A stretch of 57,712 nt of DNA from a bacterium. GTDB taxonomy: Bacteria; Actinomycetota; Acidimicrobiia; Spongiisociales; ZC4RG35. The DNA is taken from positions 1-57,712 of the forward strand of contig JAHEDH010000003.1 in assembly GCA_024641285.1 (NCBI GenBank). Reading direction: 5' to 3'. Positions within the stretch are counted from its first letter, which is position 1, and the number at the start of each line of letters is the position of its first letter. The notes under the pieces were generated by a model. The model had not been told where the DNA came from, did not search any database, and saw only the letters and a program-made list of their open reading frames with translations. Shown here in pieces: positions 1 through 10,085 of this stretch. The position numbers were made by a program, and so were the translations under genes.

Positions 1-2
1 GG

Positions 3-1643
3 CCGGTCAGAGCAGCGACCGGCACCGAGTTGAGCTGTCGGGGATGGCAGCAGGAAGCGGCGTTGCGGATGTTCCACAACAACCTCGACCCCGAGAATGC
101 CGAGAACCCCGACGAGCTGGTCGTGTACGGCGGCACGGGCCGGGCGGCCCGGTCATGGGAGGCGTTCGACGCCATCACCGCCACCCTCCAGAGGCTGGCG
201 GACGACGAGACCCTGCTCGTCCAATCCGGCAAGCCGGTGGGCGTGTTCCGTACCCACGAGTGGGCTCCACGCGTGCTCATCGCCAACTCGAATCTCGTTC
301 CCGAATGGGCGACCTGGCCCGAGTTCCGCAGACTCGAGCACCTCGGGCTCACGATGTACGGGCAGATGACGGCGGGGTCGTGGATCTACATCGGCACCCA
401 AGGGATCCTCCAGGGAACCTACGAGACGTTCGCCGCTATCGCCAAGAAGCGCCACGGCGGTTCGCTGGCCGGGACGATCACGCTGACCGCCGGCCTCGGC
501 GGCATGGGCGGCGCCCAGCCCCTGGCGGTGACCATGAACGAAGGGGTGGCGCTCTGCGTCGAGGTCGATCAACACCGGATCGACCGCCGCATCGAGACCC
601 GCTATCTGGACGTCCAGGCAGATGACGTGAACGACGCCTTGGAGCGGGCGATCACCGCCAAACGGGACCGCACCCCCCTTTCGATCGGCATCCTGGGCAA
701 CGCCGCCGACGTGGTCCCCCGGCTCCTCGAGATGGGTGCCGACATCGACATCGTCACCGACCAGACGTCGGCGCACGACCCGATGACCTACGTGCCGAAC
801 GACCTCTCGATCGAGGCCGCCACCGAGATGCGCACCAACGACCCCGACGAGTACATCCGCCGTTCGAGGCAGGCGATGGTCCGCCATGTCGAGGCGATGG
901 TCGGGTTCATGGACGCCGGAGCGGAGGTGTTCGACTACGGCAACAGCCTGCGGGCCGAGGCGATGATCGGCGGCTACGACCGGGCGATGGACTATCCCGG
1001 GTTCGTGCCGGCATACGTCAGGCCGCTCTTCTGTGAGGGCAAGGGCCCGTTCCGCTGGGCTGCGCTGTCGGGCGATCCGGCCGACATCGCCGCCACGGAT
1101 CGGGCGGTCCTGGAGGAGTTCCCAGATGACGAGGCACTGGGGAGGTGGATCCGGATGGCCGGTGAGCGCGTGGCGTTCCAGGGTCTGCCCGCCCGGATCT
1201 GCTGGCTGGGATATGGGGAACGCCACCGCCTGGCGCTTCGATTCAATCGCATGGTCGCCGGTGGCGAGATATCCGCGCCGATCGTGATCGGCCGAGACCA
1301 TCTCGACTCCGGGTCGGTCGCTTCGCCCTACCGGGAGACCGAGGCGATGGCCGACGGCTCGGACGCCGTCGCCGACTGGCCGCTGCTCAACGCCATGCTC
1401 AACACGGCTTCGGGTGCCACCTGGGTGAGTATCCATCACGGCGGCGGTGTCGGCATCGGGAGATCGATCCACGCCGGACAGGTGTGCGTCGCCGATGGAA
1501 CCGACTTGGCGGCCGAGAAGCTCGAGCGGGTCCTGACCAACGACCCGGGCACCGGCGTGATGCGTCACGTGGACGCCGGATACGAGCGCGCCATCGAGGT
1601 GGCGGGCGAACGCGGAGTTCGTATCCCGATGATGGAGGGCTGA
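3..1643 (+). CDS. hutU: Urocanate hydratase (5'-truncated by window edge)
   Basis: Frame open from base 3 ([23 protein letters not shown]). Hallmark motifs [46 protein letters not shown]. Confidence 0.97.
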
Positions 1644-2212
1644 TGTCGGTCCGCCCGATCGTTCCGATCGGTCACCCGGTGCTCCGCACTCCTACGATCG
1701 ATGTGGACCCGGCGGACATCGCCTCGCCAGAGATCCAGGGATTGATCGACGACCTGATCGACACGATGCGTCACGAGAACGGCGCCGGGATCGCCGCCAA
1801 CCAGATCGGCGCCACGGCCCGGATCACGACCATCGAGGTCACCGACAATCCACGCTATCCCTACAAGCCGCCGATCCCGCTCACCGTTGCGATCAACCCG
1901 CGCCTCGAGCCCATCGGTGGCGAAACAGTCGTCATCAACGAGGGCTGCCTCTCGGTGCCGCTCCGAGGGGATCTGGTCCGCAGCGTCACGGTGCGCGTCC
2001 GCTATCTCGACAGGGATGGCCTCGAGCACGACGAGATCAAGCGGGGTCTGACCGCCGGGACTTGGCAACACGAGTGCGACCACCTCGACGGACGGCTCAT
2101 CGTCGATCGGATCGATCCCGCGACGATGGCCACCTGGGAACAGTTCGAAGCCCACCAGCGGGATGCCTTCATCGAGCGGATCACCCGCTTCACCGAGGAG
2201 GTGGGCTCGTGA
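1643..2212 (+). CDS. def: Peptide deformylase family protein
   Basis: All three PDF motifs present: GIAANQ, EGCLS, QHECDHLDG. ATG overlaps the hutU stop (TGATG). Confidence 0.93.
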   Translation: MSVRPIVPIGHPVLRTPTIDVDPADIASPEIQGLIDDLIDTMRHENGAGIAANQIGATARITTIEVTDNPRYPYKPPIPLTVAINPRLEPIGGETVVINEGCLSVPLRGDLVRSVTVRVRYLDRDGLEHDEIKRGLTAGTWQHECDHLDGRLIVDRIDPATMATWEQFEAHQRDAFIERITRFTEEVGS

Positions 2213-3537
2213 CCGCCTACTTCTGTGAACGGGCCCTTCTCCCGGAGGGCTGGGAGGAAGACGTCCTCATCGATGTCACCGACGGAGTCATCGAGCGTGT
2301 CGGCATTGCGCTGACGGCGGAGAAGGAGGCCACGGTTCTGGCCGGGCTGGTGATTCCAGGCATGGCGAACGCCCACAGCCATGCGTTCCATCGGGCACTG
2401 CGAGCCAGGACTCATGCCCTCGGTGGGTCGTTCTGGACGTGGCGTGACCTGATGTACGAGACGGCAATCAAGCTCACGCCGGACAGTTACTACGAGCTCG
2501 CCGTTGCTGTCTTTGCCGAGATGCTCGAGGCCGGGTTCACGGCAGTCGGTGAGTTCCATTATCTCCATCACCAAGCAGACGGCACGCCGTACTCGGAACC
2601 GAACACGATGGCTCAGCGGGTGGTCGACGCCGCCAACCACGTCGGGATTCGGATCACGCTCCTCGACACGGTCTTCCTCCATGGCGGTCTCGACCCAGAC
2701 GGCTACCGCCCGCTTTCCGGCAACCAGCTCCGCTTCGGTGACCGCACGGTTGAGCGCTACCTCGACCGCACCAGCCAGTTGAACCTGGAGGGCCTGTCCA
2801 AGGTCGGCACTGCCATTCACTCGATCCGTGCCGTCGACCCTGAGTCGATTGCAGTCGTCGGGTCGGCCCTCGATCGGCCAACCCACGCACACCTGTCCGA
2901 ACAGCCCGATGAGAACACACAGTGCCTGGCGGCCCACAACGGCACGCCGACCGAAGTCTTCCATGAAGCAGGGGTCCTGTCGCAGTCGTTCACGGCGGTT
3001 CACGCGACCCACCCCACCCCACACGACATCTCCCTGTTGGGCGACTCGGGTGCCTCGGTGTGTCTGTGCCCGACAACGGAACGCGACCTCGCCGATGGGG
3101 TGGGACCCGCCTCCGAGCTGAAAAGGGCCGGTGCCCGGCTGTGCGTGGGGAGCGACTCACATGCCGTGATCGATCCATTCGAGGAGATGCGAGCGATCGA
3201 GATGCACGAGCGACTCACCTCCCACCAGCGTGGCGTCTTTCATTCCGCCGACCTCATCACCGCAGCAAGCCTCGATGGATACGCGGCGATCGGTTGGCAG
3301 GGAGGCGGGCGCATCGCCGTAGGGGCTCCTGCCGATCTCGTGTGCCTGGGCCTCGGCTCGAACCGCCTTGCGGGCGCCGACCGTTCTCTGCCCGACGACG
3401 CCGTGGTGTTCTCCGCAGGGGCCGGCGACGTGACCGACGTGGTCGTGGCCGGCCGGCATCTGGTCAGCGAGGGGTCGCACCGGAGCGTGGCCACCGGCGA
3501 AGCGCTGGACCGGGCGATTCAGGCACTGTTCCGGTGA
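2209..3537 (+). CDS. hutF: Formimidoylglutamate deiminase
   Basis: [50 protein letters not shown] start overlaps the def stop (GTGA). Confidence 0.93.
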
Positions 3538-4679
3538 CGACGGTCATCGACGACATCGGACTCCTCGTCACGAACGATCCTGCGATCGGGCGGGGAGCGC
3601 TCGGGTTGGTCGAGAACGCCTCGATCGTCATCGACGATGGGGTCGTCGTGTCGGTGGGCCCGGCAGGTCAGCTCGCCGACGACCGCGTAGATGCCGCAGG
3701 TCGGTGCGTGCTGCCCGGGTTCGTCGATTCACACAGCCATCTCGTGTTCGCAGGAGACCGGGCCGAGGAGTTCACCGCCAGGATGGCCGGAACTCCCTAC
3801 GACGGTGGAGGCATCCGGGTGACCACCGAGGCGACACGCGCAGCGAGCACCGAGCGTCTGATGGAGCTGACCGCCAGACGAGTCGGCGAGGCCCGCCGCT
3901 ACGGCACGACGACACTCGAGATCAAGTCCGGGTACGGCCTCAACGTGATCGACGAGGTCCGCAGCCTCGAAGTGGCGAACCGGTTCACTTCCGAGACGAC
4001 CTTCCTCGGTGCGCATCTCGTGCCGTCCGAGTACGTCGGCCGCACCGACGATTACGTCGACCTCGTCTGCGGCGAGATGCTGGAGGCGGCGGCTCCTCTG
4101 GCGAAGTGGATCGACGTGTTCTGCGAACGCGGCGCCTTCGACGCCGACCAGTCGGCCCGGGTCCTCGATGCAGGCAAGGCCGCGGGACTGGGCCTGCGGC
4201 TGCACGGCAACCAGTTGAGTGAAGGACCCGGAGTCCGGCTGGCCGTCGAGAAGGGTTGTGCGTCTGTCGATCACTGCACCTACCTGAGTGACGAAGACAT
4301 CGAGGCACTCGCTTCGTCCAACACGGTTGCGACATTCCTGCCCGCCACCGACTTCTCCACTCGACAGCCCTACCCGAACGCCCGTCGGGTGATCGATGCG
4401 GGAGCACAGGTGGCGATCGCGTCGAACTGCAACCCCGGATCGAGCTACACCACGTCGGTTCCGTTCTGCATCGCCCTGTCAGTGCGCGACATGGGCATGA
4501 CGATCGAAGAAGCAGTCCAGGCCGTCACACTGGGAGGGGCTCGCGCACTGCGCCGGGAGGATCTCGGACGACTCGCTCCCGGGTCTGCCGGCCACGCCGT
4601 GATTCTCGATGCACCCAGCTACCACCACCTGGCGTATCGACCCGGTGTCGACGTCGTCGACCGCGTGATCGGCGGATAG
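3534..4679 (+). CDS. hutI: Imidazolonepropionase
   Basis: [42 protein letters not shown] overlap with hutF. Confidence 0.95.
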
Positions 4680-4685
4680 GCGCCT

Positions 4686-5291
4686 GTGAGCGACGAACGG
4701 AGCCCGACCGTCGACGAGTTGTTCCAGCGTCAACTCGCTCTCCAGAGCGAGGCAGCAAAGGTGATCATGGACCTGAGGCTTTTCGATGTCTTGAAGTCGG
4801 CGGGCGTCCCCAATCCGGTCGGGAGCCTGGCCACCGGGCTGATGGTGTGGCGCGACATCGACTTCACGGTGGTGGTCGACCGGCTGGACCTCGGTGTCGT
4901 CATCGGACTCGCAGGTGTGCTCGCCTTACATCCCCGGGTGAGAGCGATCGAGTTTCGCAACGACAGCGGCCATTGGAACCGGGACGACGCGGAGTATCCG
5001 GACGGTCTCTTCCTCGGTGTCGAGTACGTCGGCGACGAGGTCTGGGAGTTGGACATCTGGTTCGTGACGGAGCCCGAGCGCCAACCCGATATCGCCCACG
5101 TCCGAGAGCTCTCGAAGCGTCTGACAGATGAGCATCGAGCGGCGATCCTCGCCATCAAGGACGCCTGGCACGGTCGCCCCGAGTACGGGTCATCGATCTC
5201 CAGCTACGACTTCTGCTCGGCGGTATTGGACGAGGGAGTGCGCACCGCCGAGGCGTTCGAACAGTTCATGAGTCACCGATCCGACGGGTGA
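4686..5291 (+). CDS. Hypothetical protein, pol-beta-type nucleotidyltransferase-like
   Basis: GS-x8-RDID signature (GSLATGLMVWRDIDF) plus a distal LDIW acidic residue. Starts 6 nt after the hutI stop. Confidence 0.55.
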   Translation: MSDERSPTVDELFQRQLALQSEAAKVIMDLRLFDVLKSAGVPNPVGSLATGLMVWRDIDFTVVVDRLDLGVVIGLAGVLALHPRVRAIEFRNDSGHWNRDDAEYPDGLFLGVEYVGDEVWELDIWFVTEPERQPDIAHVRELSKRLTDEHRAAILAIKDAWHGRPEYGSSISSYDFCSAVLDEGVRTAEAFEQFMSHRSDG

Positions 5292-5491
5292 GGCGCGGAG
5301 TGAGCATTCGGTAGAACTGACTAGTCCCACTGGGCTCTCCTATCCACCCGCGCCGCCTCGTCTACGCCTGCTCCATTCGACCACTCCCCGACGTTGTCTA
5401 GTCACTTTGTGCGTTCATGATTGATCCTCCACTTCGGCATGCATCCGGGTCGATGCAATCGCTGTGGGACCAACCAAGGAAGGTAAGACAG

Positions 5492-7312
5492 ATGCCGAAT
5501 ACAACCGAGTGGCCCCCGTCCCTCACGGACTCCGCTCGATCCAGACATCGCAGAGCCGTCGGCATCTTCACGATTCTCTCGTTGCTGTTCGCCCTCGTCA
5601 CAACAGGACCGGGCCGCTCCACCGCTGATGAGGGCCTGCTCGACGTCATCGTCGTCGAGACCAACCCGGTATCCGATCTGGCCGAAGCGATCGTCACCAG
5701 CGCCGGCGGTGTCATCACCTCACACCTCGACCTGATCGGCGGCTTCAGCGCGACCGTCCCGAGTGGATCTCTCGCTGAACTCGAGGCCAGCGCGTCCGTT
5801 CAGTCGATCACCCCCGACGGGAGCGTCACCCTCACCGAAGCCGGGTGGGGTAACGCAGTAGCCGACCTGGGCTCGCTCAACCCGAAGGATTTCGGCGGAT
5901 CACTGTTCCGCATCACCGAGATCACCAAGGTCCGTGACTTCTGGGCCAAGGGTTTCACCGGCGCAGGCGTCGACGTGGCACTCATCGACTCCGGTGTCAC
6001 CCCGGTTCCCGGTCTCAACGACCCGAGCAAGGTCCTCAACGGCCCCGACCTCTCGTTCGAGTCCCAGAGCGCAGAGTTCCGGAACCTCGACACGTACGGC
6101 CACGGCACCCATATGGCCGGAATCATCGCCGGACGGGACCTGATTGCCGCCAACTACAACGACATCGTCGCCGACCACTTCGTTGGCGTGGCGCCGGACG
6201 CCAGGATCGTCAACGTCAAGGTCGGCAATCACGACGGCACTGTCGATGTGAGCCAGGTCATCGCCGGTATCGACTGGGTCGTCCAGCACAAGAACGACAA
6301 CGGGATGAACATCCGCGTCCTCAACCTCTCGTTCGGCACCGATTCCACCCAGTCCCATCTGCTCGACCCGCTGTCACACGCCGTCGAGCAGGCTTGGAAG
6401 GCCGGGATCGTCGTCGTCGTAGCTGCCGGAAACGACGGAAATGCCAACCCACTTCGGAACCCGGCCACCAATCCCTATGTGATCGCAGTTGGATCAGCCG
6501 AGGGAATGAAGGCCGACAGCGCGTCCATGGACCTCGTCTCCGACTTCTCGAACTGCGGAGCCAACGGGAGATCAGTCGATCTGGTCACCCGCGGACGCTC
6601 AGTTCTCTCGCTCCGGACGCCGGGCTCAGCGGCGGACAACGAGAACCCACAAGCACGAGTCGAGGGCCGCCTCTTCCTCGGCTCCGGCACGAGCCAATCC
6701 GCTGCCGTGGTATCGGGCCTCGCGGCGTTGATGATCGATCAGCATCCGGGTCTGTCTCCGGACCAGGTCAAATCGATGCTCACGACTGGCAACCTCGCGG
6801 TGAAGAACTCGACCAAACAGTGTCAGGGCGCGGGAGGAGCGATCCTCCAACTGAAGGAGAGGATCCCGAGCTCTTCGCAGACCCACGCCCCGTCGACGGG
6901 TCTCGGTACCCTCGAAGGCGCTCGCGGCTCTGATCACCTGCAGTCGAACGGTGTGACGCTCGCCGGAGAGAAGGACATCTTCGGAAAACCCTGGAACGCA
7001 AATGCCTGGTCCAGCGCAGCCACCCTCGGCACATCGTGGTCGGGCGGCACGTGGAACGGGACGTCGTGGTCCGGCACCAATTGGTCGGGTACTTCATGGT
7101 CCGGCACGAGCTGGTCAGGCCTCGGCTGGTCCGGCACGAGCTGGTCAGGCCTCAGCTGGTCCGGAACGAGCTGGAGCAACAAGACGTGGACGGGAACTTC
7201 GTGGTCCGGCACCTCCTGGTCCGGCACGTCCTGGTCCGGCACGAGCTGGTCCGGCACGTCTTGGTCGAGCGCCGGCTGGGGCCCACCGGACACCGGGCTG
7301 CGCTGGGACTGA
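5492..7312 (+). CDS. Secreted S8 (subtilisin-family) serine peptidase with C-terminal Trp-pentapeptide repeats
   Basis: Hydrophobic signal, I9-like prodomain, triad motifs VALIDSG / HGTHMAG / GTSQS, oxyanion GNDG. GGAAGG 8 nt before the ATG at 5492. Confidence 0.92.
   Translation: MPNTTEWPPSLTDSARSRHRRAVGIFTILSLLFALVTTGPGRSTADEGLLDVIVVETNPVSDLAEAIVTSAGGVITSHLDLIGGFSATVPSGSLAELEASASVQSITPDGSVTLTEAGWGNAVADLGSLNPKDFGGSLFRITEITKVRDFWAKGFTGAGVDVALIDSGVTPVPGLNDPSKVLNGPDLSFESQSAEFRNLDTYGHGTHMAGIIAGRDLIAANYNDIVADHFVGVAPDARIVNVKVGNHDGTVDVSQVIAGIDWVVQHKNDNGMNIRVLNLSFGTDSTQSHLLDPLSHAVEQAWKAGIVVVVAAGNDGNANPLRNPATNPYVIAVGSAEGMKADSASMDLVSDFSNCGANGRSVDLVTRGRSVLSLRTPGSAADNENPQARVEGRLFLGSGTSQSAAVVSGLAALMIDQHPGLSPDQVKSMLTTGNLAVKNSTKQCQGAGGAILQLKERIPSSSQTHAPSTGLGTLEGARGSDHLQSNGVTLAGEKDIFGKPWNANAWSSAATLGTSWSGGTWNGTSWSGTNWSGTSWSGTSWSGLGWSGTSWSGLSWSGTSWSNKTWTGTSWSGTSWSGTSWSGTSWSGTSWSSAGWGPPDTGLRWD
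7031..7285 (+). repeat. 17 x 15-bp coding tandem repeat (TSWSG consensus)
   Basis: Trp every fifth residue from TSWSG to AGWGP; synonymously varied codons. Confidence 0.95.
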
Positions 7313-7589
7313 AGGGCCGAGCATGCCGTCTCTCCCGGGACCATGGCAACGGAGTGCACCCGTATGCGGCGGACCAGTCGCCTCCGTTCGGCGCTTCGAG
7401 TCGAGGAGCTAGTCCCTTTGGGCAACACCGATTGGTCCTCCAGACCGCACTCCCGATTCGCCGAAGGAAGAGAAGGAACCAAGGAAGGTGCAAGTTGATC
7501 CGTGTGAGCTACACGATCGGACGGGACGGATACCGAAACCCCGATCGAGACGACTCCCGAAATCCATCCTCAAAGACGAAGGGCCTCGT

Positions 7590-10085
7590 ATGAGAGCCGG
7601 CAGCGTTCGCTGGGAAATGCGCCACAACACGGGTCTCGTTCTGACGTTGATCCTCTCACTCCTCCTTACCATTCTCACATCAGCGGCAGCGGCGTCAGGC
7701 CCCGCCGATGGTGCCCTCGTTCGCGTGATCGTCACCGAGGTCAATCCGGCCACGGCCGATGCCGAGAGCCTCGTCGAGAGGCTCGGTGGCGTTGTACGTG
7801 ACAACCTGGGGTTGATCGGCGGGTTCAGTGCAACGGTTCCACAGAACGCCATCGACCGCTTGGTTGCTGACGCCTCGATCTCGGCCGCAGCCATCGATCG
7901 CTCGGTCGAACTCCTGAGCTGGGCCGACGAGACACCCGATGGGCGCCTACCTGGCTCGCTCGACGTGCTGACCTCGTCGGTCATCCGCGCCACGGACTTT
8001 TGGAGAGCCGGATACACCGGCGCAGGCGTCGACGTCGCGCTCATCGACTCGGGCATCGTTCCGGTCGACGGACTGACAACGCCAGGCAAGGTCATCAACG
8101 GGCCGGACTTGTCGCTGGAACAGGCTGCCGAGGTGCGGTATCTCGACACCTTCGGTCACGGCACGCACATGGCCGGCATCATCGCCGGCCGCAGTGAGGG
8201 TGCCACCATCGATGATTACCGCACCACCTGCTGCTATCTGCTCGGAGCCGACGGACTGCTCAACCGATTCGACCCGGCGCAGCCAGGTTCGGGCACAGAA
8301 ACCGTCGCGACTTCCAGCGCCGGCTTGAAGGCGATGGCCGTCCAGCCGGGAACCGACACGCTGTTCGCTTCCACCGGCACAAGACTCGTCACGGTCGATA
8401 CGGCGTCAGGCGTATCGACAACGCTCGGATCTTTCGGATCCGTGTCCGGATCTGCCGGCTCCGTCAGCCTCGATGCCGTCAAGGTCCTCACCTTCGATGG
8501 AAATCGACTCTTCGGTGTCCAGGACATGGGCTCGGGCAACCAGGATCTGATCTTCGAGATCAACCCGGCCACCGGTGCCGCCCTCCGCGGCGGCTTCGGA
8601 GGCAAGGACTACACCGAAGTGCAGAAGCCATCTGCCACGTTGAAGTCCCTCGCCGACATCGCGGTCGACCCGACCACCGGCATCATGTACGGACTCGCAT
8701 GGGACGGCAACGGTCGCTACGAGCTCGCCACCATCGATGCCGCCACTGGCGCCGTCGCCCTGGTTGGTGGCGGGCTCCACAGAAAGGTCGACACGCTCGC
8801 CTTCGACGGATACGGCGAGCTATGGGGCTTCGACCGTGAGAACTCGGAGCTCGTCGTCCTCGACAAGTCGCGTGGCGGTGAGCCATCCGGGGCGCGCCCC
8901 GTGTCCGTCTCCGGAGCCATCATGGACATCGCTCCCACGACGGCTGACGTCTTCGACACCCCTTCGCCCCACTTCCTCGGTGTCGCCCCCGATGCACGGC
9001 TCGTCAACGTCAAGGTCGGCGCCCATGACGGATCGGTGGATGTCTCGCAGGTGATCGCCGCCATCGACTGGGTGGTCCAGCACAAGAACGACAACGGACT
9101 CGACATACGGGTGCTGAATCTCTCGTTCGGAACGGACGGGACTCAGAAGTACCAAGACGACCCGCTCTCCTTCGCGGTCGAAGCAGCTTGGAAGCACGGC
9201 ATCGTCGTGGTCGTGTCGGTCGGCAACGACGGAAACGGCGCAAAGGTCCGCAACCCCGCGATCAACCCGTACGTCATCTCGGTCGGCTCGGTCGACACAG
9301 CCGGAACCTACGGCCTCGGCGACGACGTCCTGAGCGGCTTCTCGAACTGTGGCGACAAATCACGTCGGCCCGATCTCGTCGCGCCGGGCAAGTCGGTCGT
9401 CAGCCTCCGCAGCCCGGGCTCGGTGTCAGATGAGCTCTACCCGAATGCCCGGACCGGTACCCGCCTGTTCCGCGGCTCCGGGACGTCGCAGTCCGCAGCC
9501 GTCGTGTCCGGGGCAGCGGCGCTGCTGATCGACCAGCGCCCCGAGCTGACGCCGGACCAGGTGAAGGCCATCCTGATCGGGTCCGCGCGGAAGATTCCGC
9601 AAGTCGACAAGAACTGCCAGGGAGCCGGCCTACTCGATCTGAGTGGCGCGTTGGTCACGGCGACTCCCGGCGCAAGCCAGTCGTTCAAGGCCTCCAAGGG
9701 ACAAGGTTCCCTCGATGCCGCCCGTGGGACACATCGCATCGCACTCGACGGGGACGTCATTTCAGGCGAAGTGGACATCCACGGTCGACCGTGGAATGGC
9801 ACCTCCTGGTCCGGCACCAGCTGGTCTGGCACGTCCTGGAGCGCCGGCGTCTGGAACGGCACCTCCTGGTCCGGCACGAGCTGGTCGGGCTTGAGCTGGT
9901 CGGGCTCGAGCTGGTCGGGCTTGAGCTGGTCGGGCTTGAGCTGGTCCGGCACGAGCTGGTCCGGCACGAGCTGGTCCGGCACGAGCTGGTCCGGCACCTC
10001 CTGGTCGGGCACCTCCTGGTCCGGTACGTCGTGGTCCGGCACGAGCTGGTCGGACGCCTCGTGGGCCGGCCTGCGCTGGGACTGA
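7590..10085 (+). CDS. Secreted S8 serine peptidase with internal beta-propeller-like insertion and C-terminal Trp-pentapeptide repeats
   Basis: Paralog of the upstream S8 gene with the same triad motifs and an ~245-aa insertion after HGTHMAGIIAGR. Start could be 7590 or 7617. Confidence 0.9.
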   Translation: MRAGSVRWEMRHNTGLVLTLILSLLLTILTSAAAASGPADGALVRVIVTEVNPATADAESLVERLGGVVRDNLGLIGGFSATVPQNAIDRLVADASISAAAIDRSVELLSWADETPDGRLPGSLDVLTSSVIRATDFWRAGYTGAGVDVALIDSGIVPVDGLTTPGKVINGPDLSLEQAAEVRYLDTFGHGTHMAGIIAGRSEGATIDDYRTTCCYLLGADGLLNRFDPAQPGSGTETVATSSAGLKAMAVQPGTDTLFASTGTRLVTVDTASGVSTTLGSFGSVSGSAGSVSLDAVKVLTFDGNRLFGVQDMGSGNQDLIFEINPATGAALRGGFGGKDYTEVQKPSATLKSLADIAVDPTTGIMYGLAWDGNGRYELATIDAATGAVALVGGGLHRKVDTLAFDGYGELWGFDRENSELVVLDKSRGGEPSGARPVSVSGAIMDIAPTTADVFDTPSPHFLGVAPDARLVNVKVGAHDGSVDVSQVIAAIDWVVQHKNDNGLDIRVLNLSFGTDGTQKYQDDPLSFAVEAAWKHGIVVVVSVGNDGNGAKVRNPAINPYVISVGSVDTAGTYGLGDDVLSGFSNCGDKSRRPDLVAPGKSVVSLRSPGSVSDELYPNARTGTRLFRGSGTSQSAAVVSGAAALLIDQRPELTPDQVKAILIGSARKIPQVDKNCQGAGLLDLSGALVTATPGASQSFKASKGQGSLDAARGTHRIALDGDVISGEVDIHGRPWNGTSWSGTSWSGTSWSAGVWNGTSWSGTSWSGLSWSGSSWSGLSWSGLSWSGTSWSGTSWSGTSWSGTSWSGTSWSGTSWSGTSWSDASWAGLRWD
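9786..10082 (+). repeat. 20 x 15-bp coding tandem repeat (TSWSG consensus, last unit LRWD)
   Basis: 99 residues with Trp in unbroken period-5 register through to the stop codon. Confidence 0.95.

Follow-up and report, generated by a model that had tools for sequence, protein, structure and literature searches.

A hut-operon member of the peptide deformylase family as a candidate N-formyl-L-glutamate deformylase in Acidimicrobiia

HutG, which belongs to the five-step Pseudomonas-type Hut pathway, and Def of Escherichia coli, a type 1B housekeeping enzyme, are two described enzymes with which the gene discussed here invites comparison. The HutF branch of histidine catabolism needs one reaction beyond HutF itself, the hydrolysis of an N-formyl amide, and this is the chemistry of the peptide deformylase (PDF) fold. 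In many Actinomycetota, this last step of the HutF-type pathway is without an assigned gene. We analysed 57,712 nucleotides of DNA (bases 1-57712 of contig C132, hereafter the window) from an assembly of 224 contigs that is 89.5% complete. Here a PDF gene encoding 189 amino acids occupies positions 1643..2212 of the forward strand and is placed between hutU and hutF rather than among fmt and translation genes. We use the name PDFh for the hut-linked PDF clade to which this gene belongs. Comparisons at the sequence level suggest, with a probability of about 0.7, that PDFh is an N-formyl-L-glutamate deformylase and an analogue of HutG. This reading is based on four observations: the gene stays linked to the operon through rearrangements, it co-occurs with hutF, its clade is also found fused to HutF, and the hut-coupled sequences share a pocket signature, with a separate housekeeping def always present.

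Full-text searches of the literature returned no paper in which a PDF is connected with hut operons or with N-formylglutamate, and the word 'hut' is absent from the main text of a 2025 survey of accessory PDFs (PMC12690207).

Linkage to hut genes and co-occurrence with hutF

PDFh is the second of four co-directional genes in the window – hutU, PDFh, hutF, and hutI – in which each stop codon overlaps the next start. An earlier note on this DNA, which had proposed the PDF as a replacement for HutG, looked to conserved hut linkage among its homologs, and such linkage was found in all of the best 80 loci and in at least six gene orders. These loci, at 60-88% identity, were drawn from a species scan (one genome per species) that yielded at least 585 confirmed relatives. 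Their labels are mostly Acidimicrobiia, Ilumatobacteraceae, Microthrixaceae, and Acidimicrobiaceae, with some Solirubrobacterales or Thermoleophilia; records labelled Ilumatobacter sp. and Candidatus Microthrix sp. are included and suggest possible carrier genera. A same-strand hut gene lies beside PDFh in 80/80, hutU is found in 77/80, and hutF is likewise found in 77/80, the loci without hutF being L070, which ends after PDFh, as well as L098 and L100, which read PDFh-hutI. The gap from PDFh to a following hutF measures 0-218 nucleotides in 74 of 76 cases. As this placement recurs in 80/80 related loci, the position of PDFh in the hut operon is far beyond chance.

Other samples gave a similar picture. 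All ten PDFh genes in a sample of 41 relatives adjoin hut genes, and the arrangements seen are U-P-F-I, F-I-U-P, U-P-F (with hutI 7 kb off), U-gap-P-F-I, U-F-I-P, and F-P, where U, P, F, and I denote hutU, PDFh, hutF, and hutI. In 30 of the 33 PDFh genomes of a class sample (301 genomes), no more than 5 kb of the same contig separates PDFh from hutF, and the order U-P-F-I is found in four of the five PDFh genomes of a phylum sample (401 genomes) that fall outside the class. The interval between hutU and PDFh exceeds 400 nucleotides in 17/77 loci. A PhyH-family Fe(II)/2-oxoglutarate dioxygenase (PF05721) was recognized in 11 of the 13 open reading frames (ORFs) from such gaps that were tested (for example L068:7090-8001, L073:2388-3233, L093:422-1207, L116:7123-8001, and L122:7117-8001).

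The co-occurrence with hutF that the earlier note suggested surveying is nearly perfect, since 32/33 PDFh genomes in the class sample and 13/13 in the phylum sample possess hutF. Among the relatives, PDFh was found in 10/18 genomes with a strong hutF match and in 0/23 without one. The class sample contained 33 genomes with PDFh, 42 with hutF (E≤1e-60), and 32 with both, so that PDFh is present in 32/42 genomes with hutF and 1/259 without (the exception being G124). The corresponding figures for the phylum sample are 13/86 and 0/315, with five of the 13 lying outside the class. Because the three samples share some of their genomes, and because relatives do not count as independent cases, we place weight on a linkage that survives many rearrangements rather than on a p-value. 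Genomes flagged as unpublished entered the tallies only as relatives without hutF (G027, G038), as a carrier of an N-formylglutamate amidohydrolase (FGase) family gene without hutF (G279), and as carriers of hutF without PDFh (G434, G544, G339). In G004, which belongs to the same genus, a frameshift interrupts each of hutU and hutF, and PDFh is absent between them (L048), a state which reflects pathway decay or else indel errors in its assembly of 10 contigs.

The overlaps TGATG, GTGA, and GTGA previously described for hutU-def-hutF-hutI were borne out on reading all three junctions. The urocanate hydratase gene hutU (3..1643, forward strand) is still open at base 3, has its TGA stop at 1641-1643, and matches TIGR01228 with 912 bits against a cut-off of 375. 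It is truncated at its 5' end by the contig start, with some 10-15 codons missing and the TIGR01228 match beginning at model position 12. PDFh starts with ATG at 1643-1645, forming TGATG with the hutU stop, and ends with TGA at 2210-2212. The formimidoylglutamate deiminase gene hutF (2209..3537, forward strand) starts with GTG at 2209-2211, forming GTGA with the PDFh stop, and ends at 3535-3537; it scores 571.6 bits with NF006681 (cut-off 362) and 460 bits with TIGR02022 (cut-off 413). Finally, the imidazolonepropionase gene hutI (3534..4679, forward strand) begins with GTG at 3534-3536, again as GTGA with the preceding stop, and scores 364 bits with TIGR01224 (cut-off 298). A simple scan of bases 1-5600 gave no promoter- or terminator-like sites inside the operon. 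To judge from this arrangement, co-transcription and translational coupling of hutU, PDFh, hutF, and hutI is the best explanation.

hutH was not found in the window's own assembly. It lies directly 5' of hutU in three genomes of the same genus, and the full operon is therefore hutH-hutU-PDF-hutF-hutI, with hutH lost here at the contig edge. The earlier note had allowed for a hutG-type gene upstream of hutU, beyond the window; in the same-genus genome G002 there is none, hutU being preceded by hutH and then by transporter genes on the opposite strand.

Downstream of the operon, an ORF of 201 amino acids directly 3' of hutI (4686-5291) has no Pfam or NCBIfam match. The two large ORFs that follow the hut genes at 5417-7312 and 7488-10085 both finish with extended stretches of SWSGT-like repeats; in G002, the orthologous ORF (L033:12090-14075) encodes a subtilase (Peptidase_S8).

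Clade, motifs, pocket residues, and fusion proteins

A separate housekeeping def, which the earlier note had proposed looking for, was found adjoining fmt on contig C172. The assembly holds two PF01327 genes, the second at C172:22037-22483 in the context priA-def-fmt-rsmB, and its product is 36% identical to PDFh. A def of this type, 32-43% identical to the PDF in the window, is present in 40/41 genomes of the relatives sample, ten of which carry a second copy at least 55% identical to the window gene, that is, PDFh. The housekeeping def adjoins fmt in 20 of the 21 relatives' loci examined, the remaining locus ending right after def, and no hut matches were found beside it in any of the 21.

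Phylogeny separates the two types of gene. A tree of 91 rows was built from ten PDFh, 21 housekeeping defs, and 60 full-length representatives retrieved in a search of 1.84 billion proteins. The ten PDFh and 14 of the representatives (24/91 rows) form one set with a Shimodaira-Hasegawa-like approximate likelihood ratio test (SH-aLRT) support of 97, and a branch of length 0.9 (SH-aLRT 99) splits the housekeeping defs from all other rows. Matches to a PDFh query in the class sample end at E 3e-51, with none from there to the cut-off of 1e-30. The wider subfamily around PDFh includes PDFs of Leptospira interrogans and Burkholderia.

PDFh nonetheless retains the hallmarks of its family. PF01327 is its sole Pfam match (138.7 bits, cut-off 22.8), PF05013 being unmatched; it scores 133.2 bits with NF001159 (cut-off 125) and narrowly clears the equivalog model TIGR00079 (104.9 bits against a cut-off of 103.95). 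All three PDF motifs are kept, as the earlier note had stated, in the forms GAGIAANQ, EGCLS, and QHECDH, and G47, Q54, E100, C102, H143, E144, and H147 show no variation across 90 PDFh sequences. An AlphaFold model (mean predicted local distance difference test, pLDDT, 94.7) was matched by Foldseek to chain B of 1sv2, the L. interrogans enzyme (LiPDF), with E 3.8e-19, a template modelling score (TM-score) of 0.87/0.95, and a root-mean-square deviation (rmsd) of 1.0 Å. An ESM Atlas search with PDFh gave only clusters named 'peptide deformylase', and a predicted complex of HutF with PDFh scored 0.19, the mark being 0.32.

The distinguishing residues emerged from an alignment of 90 PDFh, 14 fusion-type sequences (12 PDF domains fused to HutF, described below, and two standalone relatives), 46 sister PDFs, 21 housekeeping PDFs, and E. 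coli Def. The catalytic residues (metal ligands, Glu, and Gln) are kept in 100% of both hut-coupled groups, PDFh and fusion-type. Y74 and K75, in the loop NPRYPYKP, are likewise invariant in both; sister PDFs have mostly Asp, Glu, or Gly at the first of these positions and Ala or Glu at the second, and housekeeping defs are without the loop. T81 is also common to the two groups. Where E. coli Def has Ile44, both hut-coupled groups have A48 and the others Ile or Val; where it has Ile128, both have G139, sister and housekeeping PDFs having Arg; and where it has Cys129, both have T140 and the others Val or Ile. N99, R134, T137, and W165 are conserved in PDFh only and not in the fusion domains.

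According to passages of PMC5071857, the S1' pocket comprises the second motif I residue, the motif II Glu, and two residues located seven and three before the first His of motif III; pocket positions are also given in passages of PMC3101196, where the CD loop is described as a mobile lid. By sequence position, PDFh keeps Leu at seven before this His, has Gly and Thr at four and three before it, and has Ala as the second residue of motif I. Read from the alignment, these substitutions would give the cavity that usually takes up Met a smaller and more polar lining; the lid has acquired an invariant Lys, and these changes may accommodate the carboxylates of N-formylglutamate. The charge of the C-terminal tail, considered as a sign of lost ribosome binding, was set aside as non-discriminating: its median is -2 in PDFh and +2 in housekeeping defs (+6 in E. 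coli Def), and the sister clades of true PDFs have a median of -3.

Fusion proteins also connect the same clade to HutF. Profile models recognized a complete N-terminal PDF and a C-terminal HutF domain in 10/10 of the long proteins tested (646-736 amino acids). Their HutF domains match the hutF models from position 2-6 onward, with the exception of P0297, an Acidimicrobiia-type PDF-HutF whose match starts at model position 42; as it may be an artefact of the same kind as the HutU-PDF proteins described below, it was not counted. The linkers resemble natural sequence. Three of the fusion proteins come from EukProt protist sets, one of them an MMETSP transcriptome, with source labels alone indicating origin. 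The 12 fusion PDF domains make up one clade (SH-aLRT 96) within the same set, supported at 97, that holds PDFh; P0313 and P0314, with a branch length of 5.5, were disregarded in this tree. Fusion to HutF indicates that the HutF product is the probable substrate of PDFh.

Apparent HutU-PDF fusions of about 745 amino acids (P0272, P0275, P0277, P0282, P0283, P0286, and P0287) were rejected as frameshift artefacts or pseudogenes at the TGATG overlap, because their similarity to hutU ends at residues 342-512 and is followed by Arg-rich sequence of out-of-frame appearance before the PDF begins.

The mechanism we propose is that of a PDF-fold, metal-dependent hydrolase recruited from protein maturation into histidine catabolism. 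HutF would convert N-formimino-L-glutamate to N-formyl-L-glutamate and ammonia, and PDFh would then release formate and L-glutamate from this product by hydrolysing its N-formyl amide (EC 3.5.1.68). For this it would rely on unchanged PDF machinery, namely a metal site of Cys/His/His, the catalytic Glu, and an oxyanion hole formed by Gln and the backbone. The glutamate side chain would sit in the remodelled S1' pocket, with its smaller and more polar lining, and the invariant Tyr-Lys of the mobile CD loop may bind a carboxylate. We infer the substrate, the roles of single residues, and a loss of activity on fMet peptides in PDFh.

Candidates for the missing step and rival explanations

The earlier note saw no HutG-type gene in the window, and this absence extends to the whole assembly, in which no FGase (PF05013) was found. 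Neither an M20 protein of the NF006770 type nor an FTCD_N (formiminotransferase) domain was detected there, and formimidoylglutamase was also absent, the lone arginase-family gene scoring as agmatinase. FGase-family genes occur in 23/301 genomes of the class sample, including 9/42 with hutF and 14/259 without; seven of the nine possess PDFh as well. None lies next to hutF in this sample, and their presence is uncorrelated with that of hutF. As they are never adjacent to hutF and occur mostly without it, the FGase homologues of this class look unrelated to hut. The Acidimicrobiia genes mostly score 75-92 bits with PF05013 (for example G193:C31:6017-6640); as 14 of the 23 are found in hutF-less genomes, they probably have another function.

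Some genomes that have hutF and lack PDFh encode other candidates near hutF. The slot between hutU and hutF that the earlier note assigned to a Zn amidohydrolase in Streptomyces-type operons is real: in G020 an M20 protein labelled 'allantoate amidohydrolase' (L052:755-2008; NF006770, 572 bits) lies directly 5' of hutF and ends exactly at its start, in the Streptomyces-type arrangement. For the M20 protein of Streptomyces avermitilis, a predicted alternative N-formylglutamate deformylase, the entry in Table 3 of PMC3223725 reads 'No deformylase activity detected'. A DinB-like metal-binding protein (TIGR03085) is encoded directly 3' of hutF in G007 (L049:9276-9932) and G211 (L138:7114-7890), which are without PDFh; with scores of 145 and 155 bits, respectively, against a cut-off of 139, it may be another stand-in for the missing step. 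Some other hutF neighbourhoods without PDFh showed no candidate. In G022, G112, and G239 (L053, L137, and L139), also without PDFh, the order is hutH-hutI-[HTH_65 + S-adenosylmethionine methyltransferase]-hutF; G022 has an FGase homologue on another contig, and the FGase matches include none from G112 or G239.

A number of these observations weigh against PDFh as the N-formylglutamate deformylase. The mutual exclusion with hutG-type genes foreseen by the earlier note fails, an FGase-family gene being present in 7/33 PDFh genomes; of the computational checks suggested in that note, this is the one that did not turn out in favour of its reading. Absences in the window's own assembly are weak evidence because it is incomplete. 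Ten of the 42 hutF genomes in the class sample have no PDFh and only two of these ten have FGase, and other solutions for the missing step must therefore exist. PDFh is not linked to hut in G316 and G530, where hutF lies elsewhere in the genome; in G240 it is found at a contig end. R134 and N99, conserved in PDFh, are not common to the fusion domains. Finally, PDFh still passes the NCBI PDF models, its nearest solved relatives, from Leptospira and Burkholderia, were deposited as peptide deformylases, and it resembles them in having the CD-loop insert and Arg108, a G-A-G in motif I, and an acidic C-terminal tail.

The last of these points could be taken to mean that PDFh is an ordinary accessory peptide deformylase acting on nascent fMet-proteins and merely riding in the hut operon, for example as extra capacity during histidine use. 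The intact motifs, the NCBIfam cut-offs passed, and a fold nearly identical to that of LiPDF (rmsd 1.0 Å) all agree with such a role, and about half of bacterial species have more than one PDF according to the 2025 survey (PMC12690207). An accessory enzyme would, however, have no physiological reason for a link to hut, yet the linkage survives at least six gene orders in several families, and hutF-less genomes almost never carry PDFh (1/259 in the class and 0/315 in the phylum sample). The same clade is moreover fused to HutF, including in protist sets, and its pocket residues are unlike those of sister or housekeeping PDFs; we consider an accessory role unlikely. About equally improbable is that PDFh serves the hut pathway with a different substrate, either by splitting N-formimino-L-glutamate directly into glutamate and formamide or by clearing a formylated by-product, N-formylisoglutamine for instance. 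What speaks for this, and also against our assignment, is that PDFh is found beside hutU and hutI without a nearby hutF in G124, L098, and L100. G124 has the order hutH-hutU-PDFh-hutI and no hutF at E≤1e-60 genome-wide (96% complete), and in these few hutF-less operons PDFh may act directly on N-formiminoglutamate. Against this reading, hutF is present in 77/80 loci and usually abuts PDFh, HutF is the fusion partner, and PDF chemistry is the hydrolysis of formyl amides; we know of no amidine hydrolysis by the PDF fold. Least credible of all is that PDFh has lost catalysis and has become a subunit of HutF or HutU with a structural or regulatory task. The HutF fusions do suggest physical proximity, but a scaffold would not be expected to conserve metal ligands, Glu, and the oxyanion-hole Gln in 100% of 90 PDFh and 14 fusion-type sequences. 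In G124 (L144), a second hutI-like amidohydrolase, with a ClpX-type zinc finger, is encoded 2 kb downstream.

We thus favour N-formyl-L-glutamate as the substrate. With slightly less assurance, though still as the probable case, we propose that a PDF-fold clade has taken on a dedicated small-molecule job, as the N-formyl-L-glutamate deformylase that closes the HutF branch in many Acidimicrobiia as well as some other Actinomycetota, and that is fused to HutF in protists. If true, this would fill the hole at the end of the HutF-type pathway by a non-orthologous displacement of HutG, and would be the first metabolic, non-ribosomal role of the PDF family. It would also correct the 'peptide deformylase' labels which sources and automatic cluster names widely attach to PDFh proteins. 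Surveys of accessory PDFs and reasoning about PDF inhibitors would likewise be affected, as PDF paralogues need not all be protein-maturation enzymes. The signature NPRYPYKP together with AGTxQHE offers a testable hypothesis of substrate specificity.

Comparison with known systems

Among solved structures, LiPDF (PDB 1SV2, 1Y6H, 1SZZ) and the Burkholderia PDFs (5KOB, 5HGW) are the best sequence matches to PDFh (E 1.3e-33 for 1sv2, about 40% identity) and also its best fold matches. PDFh has in common with them an enlarged CD loop with an N-x-R-Y-P core, L/M-R-G after EGCLS, and the three motifs. It differs in the invariant Y-K-P of its CD loop, in its location in a hut operon, and in a conserved extra pair of C-terminal helices (T164, W165, F176, R179); before QHE it has A-G-T, where LiPDF has A-I-V and the Burkholderia enzymes A-R-V. 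E. coli Def (EC 3.5.1.88) belongs to the same PF01327 family and has the same Cys/His/His ligands, catalytic Glu, and motif I Gln. Its S1' residues Ile44, Ile128, and Cys129 are replaced in PDFh by Ala, Gly, and Thr, and its gene context is def-fmt, as against hutU-hutF for PDFh.

The Streptomyces-type M20 protein (COG0624) occupies, like PDFh, the slot directly before hutF and has also been proposed as an N-formylglutamate deformylase, but it belongs to a different family. HutG (FGase, PF05013, EC 3.5.1.68) has the reaction proposed here for PDFh and the same place in the pathway, directly after HutF. The two are unrelated in fold and family, however, and PDFh would be a functional analogue of HutG rather than a member of its family.

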